Program-made: the position numbers and the translations under genes | The notes under the pieces: model-generated | The model's input: the letters and a program-made list of their open reading frames with translations, nothing else | The model's database searches: none | What the model was told of the DNA's origin: nothing | Shown here: piece after piece, positions 16,796 to 30,086 of the stretch | How positions within the stretch are numbered: position 1 is the first letter of the stretch | Layout: the number at the start of each line of letters is the position of its first letter | IMG/VR virus record: IMGVR_UViG_2778261535_000002 | Reading direction: 5' to 3' (one strand) | Origin: a virus | Taxonomy: Duplodnaviria; Heunggongvirae; Uroviricota; Caudoviricetes | DNA: 30,513 nucleotides

Positions 16796-17053
16796 CTACT
16801 TCGCTTTTGCTTCCGCTCGCTTACGCCGGCGCTCTTCTTTCCTCTCGGCTTTTGCCATGTCCATGAATGCCTGCATGATCGAGTTCCGCATCATGTAGCT
16901 AACAAAGTGATGATTGACACAGCCGTTGAGGCGCAGCTGCTCGCCAAACTCATCCACCGAGGCCAATGCTTCCATCATGCCCTTCTCGCCTTTCATGAAC
17001 TCTGAGAAGTCGCGCCCCGCTCTGGAGGCGCATTCAATGACACGATCAATCAT
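16796..17053 (-). CDS. hypothetical protein, Lys/Arg/Glu-rich C-terminus
   Basis: 85 aa ORF whose ATG overlaps the stop of the upstream KilA-N gene (ATGA), implying co-translation. Confidence 0.5.
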   Translation of the reverse strand: MIDRVIECASRAGRDFSEFMKGEKGMMEALASVDEFGEQLRLNGCVNHHFVSYMMRNSIMQAFMDMAKAERKEERRRKRAEAKAK

Positions 17054-17547
17054 CCCGGAAGCCCGGGGATCGTAATCTGCAGCTGGTTAGCCAGGGAGTT
17101 AATCTCAGCGACCAACACTGGCTTCGTATAGCGCCATGCTGCCAGCCCTTGTCCGCAGAAGCTCGCCATGTCTTTCTTCTGGTCAAACTCATGACATTTC
17201 ATGTTGAGCTGCGCACTTAAGCTGTTGCGATGCTGAAGTTCTCCGGTGAAGTAGTCATCGAGGACTTTATAGGCCGCGTACTTGAACCCGGGGTTTAGCC
17301 ATGCTGCATAATCATAAGCAACAAACTTCCCGCCATATGTTCCACCGTGTACACCGCGCTCAGTAAAAACCACAGATTCGTGGTTTTTCTCCAGCTCGGC
17401 TAAGAACTCTTTGGTCTGCTTGTTTCGCAGGTAGTAGTACGGAGATTCAGATTCACTTTTACCACTGGCTTTCCACATATCAGTGAGGCAGATCATGCCA
17501 TCTTCACCGATACGAATTGGTTGATTGAAGAGGGTTAATGATTTCAT
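17050..17547 (-). CDS. KilA-N domain protein
   Basis: 165 aa ORF with a KilA-N-like pattern (GMICLTDMWKASG ... GGTYGGKFVAYDYAAWLNPGFKYAAYKVLDDYF); sits downstream of two intrinsic terminators after Rz. Confidence 0.6.
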   Translation of the reverse strand: MKSLTLFNQPIRIGEDGMICLTDMWKASGKSESESPYYYLRNKQTKEFLAELEKNHESVVFTERGVHGGTYGGKFVAYDYAAWLNPGFKYAAYKVLDDYFTGELQHRNSLSAQLNMKCHEFDQKKDMASFCGQGLAAWRYTKPVLVAEINSLANQLQITIPGLPG

Positions 17548-17750: not shown

Positions 17751-18005
17751 TTATTTCAGGCATTGCGTCCTGATGTACTCCTGCATTTCGATAGTCGCGT
17801 TAGCATCAGCAAGCTCCTTTGTATATCTGGCGTCGAGTTCTGCTACATCATGTTGACGCTTCTGCATGTCAGCGATTGTGGATGTGGCCTTATCGCGCTG
17901 CTCTTTGTAGGTAATGGCGTTATCACGGTAATGATTAACAGCCCATGACAGGCAGACGATGATGCAGATAACCAGAGCGGAGATAATCGCGGTTACTCTG
18001 CTCAT
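17751..18005 (-). CDS. Rz: i-spanin Rz, naturally shortened (84 aa versus 153 aa in lambda)
   Basis: N-terminus [34 protein letters not shown] matches recalled lambda Rz; C-terminus ends ...RTQCLK with the conserved Cys; the central part is missing. Confidence 0.8.
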
Positions 18006-18478
18006 ACCTCAATCTCTCTGACCATTCCGCCAGCTTCTTTGAATTTTGCAATCAGGTTGTCAGCCTTATGCTCGAACTGACCATAACCAGCGCCCGGCAG
18101 TGAAGCCCAGATATTGCTGCAACGGTCGATTGCCTGACGAATATCACCGCGGTCAATCATCGGTAAAGCGCCACGCTCTTTAATCTGCTGCAATGCCACA
18201 GCGTCCTGACTTTTGGGAGAGAAGTCTTTCAGGCCAAGCTGCTTACGATAGGCATCCCACCAACGGGAAAGAAGCTGGTAACGTCCGGCTGCTGTTGATT
18301 TGAGTTTTGGGTTTAGCGTGACAAGTTTGCGAGGGTGATCGGAGTAATCAGTGAATAGCTCTCCGCCTACAATGACGTCATAACCATGATTTCTGGTTTT
18401 CTGACGTCCGTTATCTGTTCCCTCTGACCACGCCAGCATATCGAGGAACGCCTTACGTTGATTATTGATTTCCACCAT
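18002..18478 (-). CDS. R: endolysin R (lytic transglycosylase)
   Basis: 158 aa ORF starting [35 protein letters not shown], recalled lambda R. Confidence 0.9.
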
Positions 18479-18785
18479 CTTCTACTCCGGCTTTTTTAGC
18501 AGCGAAGCGTTTGATAAGCGAACCTATCGAGTCAGTACCGATGTAGCCGATGAACACGCTCGTTATATAAGCGAGATTGCTACTTAGTCCGGCGAAGTCG
18601 AGAAGGTCACGAATGAACCAGGCGATAATGGCGCACATCGTTGCGTCGATTACTGTTTTTGTAAACGCACCGCCATTATATCTGCCACGAAGGTACGCCA
18701 TTGCAAACGCAAGGATTGCCCCGATGCCTTGTTCCTTTGCCGCGAGAATGGCGGCTAACAGGTCATGTTTTTCTGGCATCTTCAT
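18462..18785 (-). CDS. S: holin/antiholin S (S107 start, with the S105 start at Met3)
   Basis: 107 aa ORF starting [22 protein letters not shown], recalled lambda S, including the MKM dual-start motif. Confidence 0.9.
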
Positions 18786-18902
18786 GTCTTACCCCCAATA
18801 AGGGGATTTGCTCTATTTAATTAGGAATAAGGTCGATTACTGATAGAACAAATCCAGGCTACTGTGTTTAGTAATCAGATTTGTTCGTGACCGATATGCA
18901 CT

Positions 18903-18940
18903 GGCAAAACGGCAGGAGGTTGTTAGCGCAACCTCATGCC
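18903..18940 (-). terminator. candidate intrinsic terminator or attenuator hairpin upstream of S
   Basis: - strand GGCA-t-GAGGTTG-CGCTAA-CAACCTC-c-TGCC followed by GTTTTGCC. Confidence 0.4.
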
Positions 18941-19027
18941 ACCCGCTTTCACGAAGGTCATGTGTAGAAGGCCGCAGCGTAACTATCACTGATGAATTCA
19001 GGATAGCCAGTGGCTACGGCTCAGTTA

Positions 19028-19103
19028 TGGTGCTGGTTAACGGACTTGAACCGCTACCCATTCGCTTACAAGGCGACTGCTCTACCATTGGAGCTAAACC
19101 AGC
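19028..19103 (-). tRNA. tRNA-Thr, anticodon UGU, with encoded CCA
   Basis: Hand-folded cloverleaf: 7/7 acceptor pairs (GCTGGTT/AACCAGC), 4 bp D stem, anticodon loop CTTGTAA, T arm AGCGG-TTCAAGT-CCGTT, discriminator A, CCA. Confidence 0.7.
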
Positions 19104-19108
19104 ATGTT

Positions 19109-19183
19109 TGGCGGGACAGCGTGGACTCGAACCACGATAAGAAGGTTAACAGCCTTCCGTAATGACCTTTATACGACTGACCC
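19109..19183 (-). tRNA. tRNA-like gene, probably tRNA-Asn (anticodon GUU), slightly atypical
   Basis: Acceptor stem 6/7 paired, D stem 3 bp plus one mismatch with GG in the loop, perfect anticodon stem GAAGG/CCTTC with loop CTGTTAA, T arm CGTGG-TTCGAGT-CCACG, discriminator G, CCA. Confidence 0.5.
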
Positions 19184-19184
19184 A

Positions 19185-19229
19185 AATAAAAAAAGCCACC
19201 GTTGCAACTTAAGAGTCACTAACGGCAGC
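19185..19229 (-). terminator. hairpin plus T7 run immediately downstream of the Q-like gene (tR'-like candidate)
   Basis: - strand CTGCCGTT ... AACGGTGG stem followed by CTTTTTTTATTTG, directly abutting the 5' end of the tRNA-like gene. Confidence 0.4.
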
Positions 19230-19246
19230 TTACCTTCTAATTATGG

Positions 19247-19765
19247 CTAAATGGATAATTGCATGTCAAGGCTTTTAACAGCAACATGCTTAACTTTCTC
19301 AACACGTTTACGCATTTTGAAAGCATTTTGCATTGGCTGGTACAAAACAAATAACGACGCTTTCAGGATGTCGTCAATTTCGTTTCTACAGGTTGCCAGT
19401 GAAGGTTTTCTCCATCCCTCGCCACCACGTCCACACATCTTGCGTGGCTTTGCAGTCGCGTGATAGTAGGATGCAATTGCTCGCTTAGATGAACCATGAG
19501 CGTAGTAGCTGAGGAGGATGCCAAAGGCTTTCTTGTCAATGCACATGACGGAATCGACGACCTGAGAAATCAACATTCCATCATCATCATTGCACATTGG
19601 CCTTGTCATAACTCTTCCCGGCTCTACGCTCTCCATGAACTTCGCTATTACGCTGCTCATACGCTTTTCCAGACGACCTGAATAAACCCATGCGCCCCAC
19701 AGTTCAAGCCAGCCATTCAGCCACTCATGCTGTTCTTTGGTGAGGTTTAGTTCTCTTATGCCCAC
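19247..19765 (-). CDS. putative late-gene antiterminator Q, not lambda type
   Basis: 172 aa ORF in the Q slot between ninI and the lysis cassette; sequence is unlike recalled lambda Q (207 aa). Confidence 0.55.
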
Positions 19766-20427
19766 GCGCCTTCTCCCTGTACCTGAATCAATGTGAGATT
19801 TCCGCAGAACACTGCGCCGGTATCGATATACATCTGGTTGGCAAATTTGAGTGGTTTCACTGCTGGCGTATGACCAAAGATGAACGTGTCCGCGCCTTTA
19901 ATTTCTTTCACGATCCCGTCTTGTGAGTTGCTGATTCGTTTGCGGTTCCAGATTACCTGCTGATGATCAACTGGCTTTCCAAACTCGTATTCGTCAAAGG
20001 GATAATCGGCGTGGCAGATAACATATTTTTTATCTTTGCTCACCAGTTCGATGATTAACGGAAGTTCTTCTGCTTTATGGGCAAGAGCTTTAGCCAGAAT
20101 TTCTTTGTCGTAATCGAGATTAAAGAACCAGCCACCGCCATTAAGCAGCCAGTGATTGACGTTTCCACGCTCTGATAAGCCATCAATCATCATTTGCTCA
20201 TGGTTTCCACGTACAGCTCTGAACCAGGGGAATGTGATTAATTCCAGACATTCGACGTTCTCTGTACCGCGATCAACCAAATCGCCCACCGAGATAAGCA
20301 GGTCTTTTTTGGTGTCGAATCCTATCGTCTCCAGTTTTTTCATCAGGTTCGTGTAGCATCCGTGCAGATCGCCAACTACCCAAATATTTCGGTATTTGCT
20401 GCCATCAATTTTTTCGTAATAGCGCAT
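19756..20427 (-). CDS. ninI: Ser/Thr protein phosphatase NinI (lambda orf221 type)
   Basis: ORF trimmed to the [25 protein letters not shown] start, which has GGAG upstream; GDLHG and GNHE metallophosphatase motifs. Confidence 0.85.
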
Positions 20428-20611
20428 CTCTTTCACTCCATCCGCGATGAACCATGAGAACGTCGTTGACGATGGCGTGCATTTTCCCGTCTTTATCATC
20501 AACGTATTTTCTGACCGTACCGCGACTACATTTCAGTCTGCGTGCTACTTCTGTCTGGTTTCCGTATGCTTCAACGAGCATGTCTGGAATGGTTTTTACT
20601 GAGAACGTCAT
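20405..20611 (-). CDS. ninH: NinH
   Basis: 68 aa ORF starting [36 protein letters not shown], recalled lambda NinH. Confidence 0.85.
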
Positions 20612-21219
20612 GCGGCCTCACTTCTGCTATTTCGCAGGTCTTTGAGTTTCTGCTGATACTCCGCCTTGATGGCCCTGCACTCTTCGACAGTCCAGCGATG
20701 GCGGTTATGGTTTGATTCGATTTCGTCTACTGCTTCCTGCCCGATGCGATTAATCAGTTCGACGCGATACGGAACGAGATTTCCGCTTTTGTGCTGGTTG
20801 CACACCACGCATTGCTTGTGAATATTGCGTTCATCAAATCGGAGTTGAGGTGCCGCAGCAGTTGTCCGGTAATGTCCGGCATCCCACTGAGCAGACGTGA
20901 GCGTTCCGCACGAGATACATGGTAAGTCGCGGTCTCTTTCTCTGATGAAGGCGTTTACGGCTTGTTGGGCTTGTTTAATCCAGTAACTGCGGGGCTTTAA
21001 GGCGAGTTTTCGAATCTTAAGTTTATCTTTCTGTCTCTGATCCTCTCGTCGTCGTTTCTTCTCTGCTGCTTTTTCCGCTTTTTCGCGTTCTTTACTTCGT
21101 CGTTCGAGTGCTATCTTGGTTCCACACTCTGGAGAGCACCACCACTGATTAGCGAATGCAGGGTGAAACCATTCCCGACATTCATCGTTTTTACATCGTC
21201 TTCGCGCTGGTTTAGCCAT
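20608..21219 (-). CDS. ninG: NinG (Rap) recombination protein
   Basis: 203 aa Cys- and basic-rich ORF in the lambda NinG position. Confidence 0.8.
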
Positions 21220-29849: not shown

Positions 29850-29921
29850 GCGCGGCGTTACCGCATACCAATAACGCTTCACTCGAGGCGTTTTTCGTTA
29901 TGTATAAATAAGGAGCACACC

Positions 29922-30086
29922 ATGCAATATGCCATTGCAGGGTGGCCTGTTGCTGGCTGCCCTTCCGAATCTTTACTTGAACGAATCACCCGTAAATTAC
30001 GTGACGGATGGAAACGCCTTATCGACATACTTAATCAGCCAGGAGTCCCAAAAAATGGATCAAACACTTATGGCTATCCAGACTAA
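29922..30086 (+). CDS. cIII: CIII (FtsH inhibitor)
   Basis: 54 aa reading frame from the ATG at 29922, translating [54 protein letters not shown], recalled lambda CIII. Confidence 0.85.
   Translation: MQYAIAGWPVAGCPSESLLERITRKLRDGWKRLIDILNQPGVPKNGSNTYGYPD

Follow-up and report, generated by a model that had tools for sequence, protein, structure and literature searches.

A phage 21-type late-gene control cassette probably stands in place of the lambda Q-pR'-6S region in a lambda-like prophage

In the window analyzed here, the whole 30,513-nt stretch of Caudoviricetes DNA from IMG/VR record IMGVR_UViG_2778261535_000002, we propose that a phage 21-type late-gene control cassette has replaced the lambda Q-pR'-6S region of an otherwise lambda-like genome, a reading to which we assign a probability of roughly 0.9. 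Lambda covered 81% of 24.5 kb at 97% identity, and the genes on the minus strand followed the order NinG, NinH, NinI, Q, tRNAs, S, and R. The boundaries of the mosaic were mapped by comparison with lambda within 20700..17901. The ninI side (20451..19763) was 97.4% identical to lambda DNA and the leader, S, and R side (19026..18371) was 97.7% identical, and the 736 bp between these flanks had no lambda match and stood in place of 1056 bp of lambda. Lambda homology ended at 19763, precisely at the ninI/Q junction, and resumed at 19026, just past tRNA-Thr, so that Q, the late promoter, the terminator, and both tRNA genes, and nothing else, made up the exchanged block (table 1). Homology to phage 21 was 89% across 19778..18966, and the match of Shigella phage Sf6 to the exchanged stretch was 98% throughout. 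We regard the window as a case of textbook lambdoid mosaicism, in which the Q-promoter-terminator unit was swapped as one block since neither the protein nor its DNA site can move without the other.

Table 1. Features of the late-control region and of its lambda-like flanks in the window.
Feature	Coordinates	Strand	Evidence and remarks
ninI (serine/threonine phosphatase), lambda-like	19756..20421	-	Pfam Metallophos, E=6.4e-17
Block exchanged relative to lambda	19027..19762	-	Q, pR', Q-binding element, pause element, tR', two tRNA genes
Q gene (Q21/Q933W-family late antiterminator, by profile matches)	19247..19765	-	172 aa, GTG start, TAG stop 19249..19247
paQ-like antisense promoter inside Q (putative)	19440..19472	+	CII box TTGCGTGGCTTTGC 19440-19453; -10 TAGGAT 19467-19472
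pR' -35 hexamer TTGACA, within Q coding sequence	19264..19269	-	Same as annotated phage 21 and Sf6 -35
Putative Q-binding element	19245..19260	-	Direct repeats AATTATCC (19260..19253) and ATTTAGCC (19252..19245)
pR' -10 hexamer CATAAT	19240..19245	-	18-bp spacer; promoter scan and phage 21 alignment
Sigma-dependent pause element TAAGCT (+2..+7)	19227..19232	-	Identical to annotated phage 21 pause element
tR' intrinsic terminator (by alignment with phage 21)	19188..19231	-	Hairpin 19231..19193 and T7 run 19194..19188
tRNA-Asn (GUU)	19109..19183	-	ARAGORN; Rfam RF00005 55.3 bits; CCA encoded
tRNA-Thr (UGU)	19028..19103	-	ARAGORN; Rfam RF00005 61.5 bits; CCA encoded
Lambda-type late leader upstream of S	18786..19026	-	97.7% identical to lambda; highly structured
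Second hairpin and GTTTTG	18905..18940	-	Stem 18940..18911, then GTTTTG 18910..18905; 126 nt before S start 18785
S holin/antiholin	18462..18785	-	Pfam Phage_holin_3_1, E=2.4e-30; lambda dual start ATG AAG ATG

The product of the ORF in the Q position matched Pfam PF06530 at 90.1 bits (cut-off 26) and the PHROGs family phrog_943, described as 'anti-termination protein Q-like' (E=5e-93), and phmmer aligned it with phage 21 Q in PDB 6JNX/6P18 over residues 1-162 of both proteins (E=2.6e-91). It was ~85% identical to this structurally solved protein (Q21): residues 1-94 were nearly the same, and the C-terminal third was diverged and followed by a 10-aa C-terminal extension. PF06530 represents the Q21/Q933W family and PF03589 the lambda Q family (Yin et al.). 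The Pfam search found no PF03589 match in the ORF at E<=0.01, BLASTP against lambda Q gave only E=4.4, and an NCBIfam search with the protein returned no match. On these profile and alignment results, the ORF is a Q21/Q933W-family antiterminator unrelated to lambda Q, with which it shares neither sequence similarity nor a Pfam family. An earlier note on this DNA had described a 172-aa ORF unlike lambda Q, set between lambda-like ninI and S in a mosaic late-control module, and our comparisons agree with it in each of these respects; the minus-strand orientation of the module's features and the two tRNA genes were absent from that note.

The Q gene is the final gene of the nin/early-right region, with the late promoter and the lysis genes following directly downstream. 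Its start overlaps the stop of ninI, which forms the upstream flank of the exchanged block. The ninI start was set at the ATG at 20421 after the model of lambda NinI (221 aa; lambda CDS 666 nt) and its N-terminal sequence. Inside Q and on the opposite strand, the paQ-like site aligned with the annotated paQ/CII site of phage 21 (TTGCGAGGTCTTGC ... TAAGAT), which suggests that it may act as an antisense promoter.

We read the anatomy of pR' by base-by-base alignment with the phage 21 record (OL657228), covering the -35, the QBE (Q-binding element), the -10, +1, the sigma-dependent pause element (SDPE), the terminator, tRNA-Asn, and tRNA-Thr. Phage 21 carries a Q of the same family, and its -35, SDPE, terminator, and tRNA-Asn and tRNA-Thr genes were identical to those of the window. 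A consensus promoter scan scored pR' at 11/12 and returned it as the sole strong promoter-like site in 18400-20000, and alignment with the annotated phage 21 start places the predicted late transcript start near G19233. The -35 and both putative Q-binding repeats fell in the last 8 codons of Q, the TAG stop lying inside the downstream repeat, and the repeats kept the same register to the -10 and +1 as QBEu/QBEd of phage 21, although their sequences differed (AATTATCC/ATTTAGCC in the window and ATTGAGCA/AATGAGCA in phage 21). The two phages also differed in that Q21 (162 aa) stops before the -35, whereas the 172-aa Q of the window runs through the -35 and both repeats, in that the -35/-10 spacer is 17 bp in phage 21 and 18 bp here, and in that a pinholin/SAR-endolysin cassette lies downstream in phage 21, where the window has lambda S/R. 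In lambda, pR' is intergenic and follows the Q stop. Among 77 close IMG/VR copies of the module, the -35 and -10 were invariant and the repeats and SDPE nearly so; besides a few single-base variants, the sole common polymorphism of the repeats was a T/G exchange in the upstream one. The window has T at this position; G (AATTAGCC) stands there in Sf6 and in roughly half of the close relatives, so that Q ends in ...MQLSI in the window and in ...MQLAI in Sf6. The T in place of G would make the upstream repeat a weaker one, which, like the longer spacer, counts against the phage 21-type reading.

Two hairpins lie between Q and S, and the first of them carries the features of the regulated terminator. 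It starts 18 nt past the Q TAG, and its T7 run ends 59 nt past the stop. Its predicted fold of -20.2 kcal/mol (z=-5.9) was matched in stability by 0 of 200 shuffles, and hairpin and T7 run were identical base for base to the phage 21 terminator, an assignment given in the GenBank annotation of phage 21, which cites PMID 1704887. The corresponding hairpin is annotated as tR' in the Sf6 and HK75 records; the Sf6 copy has one T fewer in its T-run. When 17 diverse members of the family were aligned, compensatory double changes occurred in 7 of the 13 pairs, and 90.8% of cells were paired, compared with 82% in shuffles and 31-62% when the partner strand was slid. By this alignment and covariation, the first hairpin is tR'. 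The earlier note had correctly recognized the short gap between the Q stop and a hairpin with a T7 run, which leaves no space for a pR'/6S unit of the lambda kind, the second hairpin with a T-run about 120 bp before S, and the possibility that the late promoter lies in the Q 3' end. Its view that tR' and the promoter were unresolvable from sequence did not hold, since alignment with the characterized phage 21 region resolves both. For comparison of the Q protein it had named phages 21, 82, and 933W; phage 21 proved informative, together with Sf6 and phage L, and 933W and 82 were not the most informative choices.

Sf6 (AF547987) showed 98.8% DNA identity over the full 991-bp module, and its gene 59 encodes a 172-aa Q that is 98.3% identical to the Q of the window. 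The Sf6 record annotates the same promoter position in the Q 3' end, the same terminator, and the same pair of tRNAs as in the window, with S downstream of them and a lambda-like ninI on the upstream side; the matching features are annotated as pR', qut, and tR' in both Sf6 and HK75. However, Sf6 is a P22-like podovirus, whereas the genome analyzed here is lambda-like. Salmonella phage L and ST64T carry the same Q allele as gp23 (97.7%). In phage L, the segment of gp23 from about residue 94 to the C-terminus, which bears the QBE contacts, is diverged, the QBE was predicted as AATTATCC/AtTTAgCC, the same as here, and tRNA-Asn is joined by a tRNA with anticodon UAA, in a P22-like genome with other lysis genes (Zaworski et al. 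2020, PMC8022706).

The Q21 structural papers describe a QBE direct repeat between the -35 and -10, an SDPE, and a nozzle, and we infer by homology that the module works as in phage 21. In such a mechanism, pR' would be a constitutive sigma-70 promoter, with its -35 and the pair of 8-bp Q-binding repeats in the closing codons of Q. RNA polymerase would initiate near 19233 and stall at the -10-like TAAGCT, and without Q it would terminate at the hairpin and U7 of tR', releasing a leader RNA of ~45 nt. Q would build up from the early rightward transcript, and two Q protomers would then occupy the repeats, and one of the protomers would load onto the paused polymerase and form a nozzle on the RNA exit channel, so that hairpin formation is prevented. 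The Q-modified polymerase could then pass tR' and transcribe tRNA-Asn, tRNA-Thr, the lambda-type leader including the second hairpin, S, R, and the other late genes. The start at pR', the pausing, and the Q-dependent readthrough would thus follow phage 21 in this allele as well. The module shares its genomic position and its logic with that of lambda: a constitutive late promoter, a sigma-dependent pause close to the promoter, a Q site between the -35 and -10, and a terminator that Q-modified polymerase passes.

The Q protein and its putative site differed from those of phage 21 in a correlated manner. Q21 reads its core TGAGCA through H95, A124, R127, and R128 in the major groove and R113 in the minor groove (Shi et al.). 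The Q21 specificity class combines these five residues with TGAGCA cores, and the Q of the window falls outside it, with H95R and R128N at two of the base-reading residues. Both repeats differed from those of Q21 at the same two core positions, changing TGAGCA to TTAKCC (cores TTATCC/TTAGCC). We compiled a residue/base table from 60 loci, drawn from phages and, among bacteria, from a single genome for each species, and two pairings emerged. In counts that take in related sequences and that differ slightly from the raw script tallies, the QBE registers of L104, L107, and L128 having been adjusted by eye (off by one), G stood at core position 2 in 44/45 loci with R128 and T in 15/15 loci with N128, and core position 6 was C in 21/23 loci with R95 and A in 36/38 loci with H, Y, L, or I at residue 95. 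All four core combinations (TGAGCA, TGAGCC, TTAGCC, and TTAGCA) occurred among the 60 loci, and on a neighbor-joining tree the state of residue 128 switched at least 7 times. The residue-95 rule is not absolute, since locus L096 paired R95 with a Q21-type site. This covariation lends support to where the QBE was placed and also to a specificity that differs from that of Q21. Thus, the allele of the window (R95/N128; TTATCC/TTAGCC) probably differs in DNA specificity from Q21 (H95/R128; TGAGCA), as judged from the sequences of protein and site. We also lean, by a narrow margin, toward a two-position recognition code, in which residue 128 would read core position 2 (R for G, N for T) and residue 95 would read core position 6 (R for C, H/Y/L/I for A).

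A different reading is that the cassette is functionally the same as that of phage 21, the C-terminal divergence and altered repeats representing neutral drift between interchangeable Q proteins. The first 94 Q residues, the SDPE, the terminator, and the tRNAs are indeed identical or nearly identical to those of phage 21, R113, A124, T125, and R127 are retained, and the Sf6 record calls its promoter 'nearly identical to phage 21'. We consider this reading unlikely, however: the changes fall on two base-reading residues of Q21 and on the same two positions of both repeats, identical residue/base pairings turn up in a number of separate lineages, and the Q21 structural paper reported lower Q21 binding or antitermination when these residues, or else the C:G conserved at -21 or -13, are substituted. 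If the code that we favor is true, the R95/N128/TTAGCC allele would be orthogonal to Q21 (H95/R128/TGAGCA), co-resident prophages with Q21-family regulators, including Stx phages, would not cross-activate each other's late or toxin operons, and the family would represent a ready set of orthogonal antiterminator/site pairs. If confirmed, the residue/base pattern would tell apart the co-resident prophages, Shiga-toxin phages with a Q21-type regulator among them, that can trans-activate each other's late operons from those that cannot. We did not find this family-wide two-position pattern in the literature searched. It is a modest extra to the description of the module, with wider use than the module of the window itself.

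The two tRNA genes occupy the ~160 nt that separate the hairpins and scored well above the Rfam RF00005 gathering score of 29. Both were identical in, and annotated in, phage 21 and Sf6, whereas tRNA genes are absent from the Q-S region of lambda. tRNA-Asn starts 4 nt past the T-run of the terminator, and 5 nt (19108-19104) part it from tRNA-Thr. As this leaves no room for a promoter of their own and none was predicted, the tRNAs are probably late, Q-dependent products cut from the late transcript, from which both would presumably be excised. That a promoter of their own drives them without Q, in the lysogen for instance, so that tR' does not gate them, we think improbable. The choice between excision from late mRNA and an own promoter was left unsettled for the phage L tRNAs (Zaworski et al., PMC8022706); here, however, the spacing argues against a promoter, the tight terminator-tRNA-tRNA arrangement is also kept in phage 21 and Sf6, and the consensus scan found no promoter-like site from pR' to the tRNAs. 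Compensation for late codon usage was considered as a role for the tRNAs and was unsupported: AAC made up 64% of the Asn codons in late ORFs, and ACA made up 14% of the Thr codons there compared with 36% in early ORFs. The tRNAs seem simply to have arrived with the Q block.

The second hairpin belongs to the downstream leader, which, like S and R, is of lambda's own type. The 251-nt leader folded at -85.8 kcal/mol (z=-6.3) and ended in a stem-loop, CCCC-UUAUU-GGGG, just ahead of the dual S start. Lambda, Sf6, and HK75 carry the second hairpin, and phage 21 lacks it. For an intrinsic terminator we required a GC-rich stem followed directly by a U-tract of ~7-8 nt and conserved among relatives; the stem was present (11/12 bp, -20.9 kcal/mol), but its z was only -2.0, 8 of 200 shuffles were as stable, and the terminator scan gave no call at the site. 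The T-run was 4 nt long and was broken in Sf6, where GCTTTG follows the hairpin. No covariation was found among 26 natural variants, in which 87.5% were paired compared with 87.6% in shuffles and the changes mostly broke pairs. We therefore rejected the second hairpin as the regulated tR': given its origin in the lambda leader, its short U-run, its weak z, and the lack of covariation, it is, as far as sequence and folding can tell, an inverted repeat that came along with the lambda-type leader and not the regulated terminator. That it should instead be the regulated tR', or act in series as a second terminator under Q control, the first hairpin being only an attenuator or the 3' end of the Q message, is very improbable despite its stable GC-rich stem, its GUUUUG, and its placement between the promoter and S, because it sits in a 240-bp leader ~97% common to lambda, where the leader lies downstream of the 6S region and the record annotates no terminator, and because it is the first hairpin that is identical to the characterized phage 21 terminator. 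6S RNA is a known product of lambda pR' terminated at tR'. A full-text search for reports of RNase III sites or processing sites within lambda's late leader, as a possible explanation of the second hairpin, found none. Q-modified polymerase would pass the second hairpin in any case. S is the first late protein gene downstream of the module, and its lambda identity was seen in the DNA alignment. The prophage also carries an Rz/Rz1 deletion and may therefore be less than fully lytic-competent.

The module itself is already known, being annotated in Sf6 and L and common in E. coli, and its altered site was predicted for phage L in 2020. Of 5426 complete E. coli genomes, at least 540 carried the 991-bp module at >=80% coverage, and PGAP there labels the Q copies 'antiterminator Q family protein' and annotates the same two tRNAs. 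At the same coverage (>=80%) it occurred in 44 phage records, and at least 598 matches were confirmed among IMG/VR viral contigs.

Loci that carry Q21-family modules were compared around the late promoter and its terminator. In 4 of the 77 IMG/VR copies of the window's Q allele (among L005-L084), the -35 element, the repeats and the -10 element were kept, and the sequence switched right after the -10 element to a unit with the pause element TATGCT and another terminator (equivalent to window 19239-19190). This switch marks a recombination joint, with the Q-binding promoter on one side and the pause element and terminator on the other. In addition, the two tRNAs were absent from some carriers of the same Q, pR' and tR', namely phage HK75 (L002, 1576-1700) and many IMG/VR loci. 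In a comparison made by eye, the HK75 sequence 3' of the terminator T-run (...TTTGCACAACAGGTAAGAGCATTGA) apparently resembled the sequence 3' of lambda's own tR'; if this likeness is real, the T-run would be another mosaic joint.

The region from +1 to +60 of the late transcripts was further compared in Q21-family loci from other genera (L086-L147), where both the initial sequence (GTAAGSTGCCGT..GTG..TCTTAGG) and the hairpin starting at the pause element were conserved across genera. In about half of these loci a U-tract followed the pause-element hairpin, indicating that the hairpin there serves as tR'; the remaining loci had the hairpin without a U-tract, and a separate terminator was located approximately 15-30 nt downstream.

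The stretch separating tRNA-Thr from S, a lambda-type leader (window 18786-19030, minus strand), had a folding energy of -85.8 kcal/mol (z = -6.3), a stability far above that of shuffled sequences, and its fold contained several long hairpins in addition to hairpin 2. A 1988 paper, cited in PMC7547250, refers in its title to sites at which RNase III processes the late RNA of lambda. The loop of hairpin 2 was inverted in two IMG/VR relatives (L007 and L008), from GCGCTAAC to GTTAGCGC, with the arms unmoved (equivalent to window 18940-18911), which looks like a palindrome-mediated loop flip.

The codon read by the phage tRNA-Thr(UGU), ACA, accounted for 14% of the Thr codons in the late ORFs of the window (positions below 18800), compared with 36% in the early ORFs (above 19200). 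Since ACA is rarer in the late ORFs, the tRNA-Thr(UGU) is not matched to the late genes with which it is co-transcribed.

Other features of the window are listed in the table. The paQ-like promoter inside Q is conserved with the annotated paQ of phage 21. Compared with the Stx2a phage F349, the window Rz carried a clean, in-frame deletion of 183 bp (junction 17786|17785) that removed the middle of Rz and nearly all of the embedded Rz1; because of this deletion, the window genome appears to lack a functional two-component spanin. The KilA-N/ORF11CD3 gene and the 85-aa ORF occupy the same place in the Stx phages 1717 and 2851, whereas the arrangement in lambda is different.

Control, lysis and adjacent features of the window
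Feature	Window coordinates	Strand	Remarks
paQ-like antisense promoter within Q (putative)	19440-19472	+	CII box TTGCGTGGCTTTGC; -10 TAGGAT
lambda cIII thermoregulator RNA element	29909-29967	+	Rfam RF01804, 88.5 bits, full-length match
Rz	17751-18005	-	84 aa only
KilA-N + ORF11CD3 domain protein (165 aa) and 85-aa ORF	16796-17547	-	between Rz and packaging genes

Two Q modules of enterobacterial-phage type were observed in bacterial genome contigs binned as a Cellvibrionaceae MAG (L093; 99% identity to the window Q) and a Segatella copri MAG (L098; 85%), and their presence there is probably due to contamination during metagenome binning.
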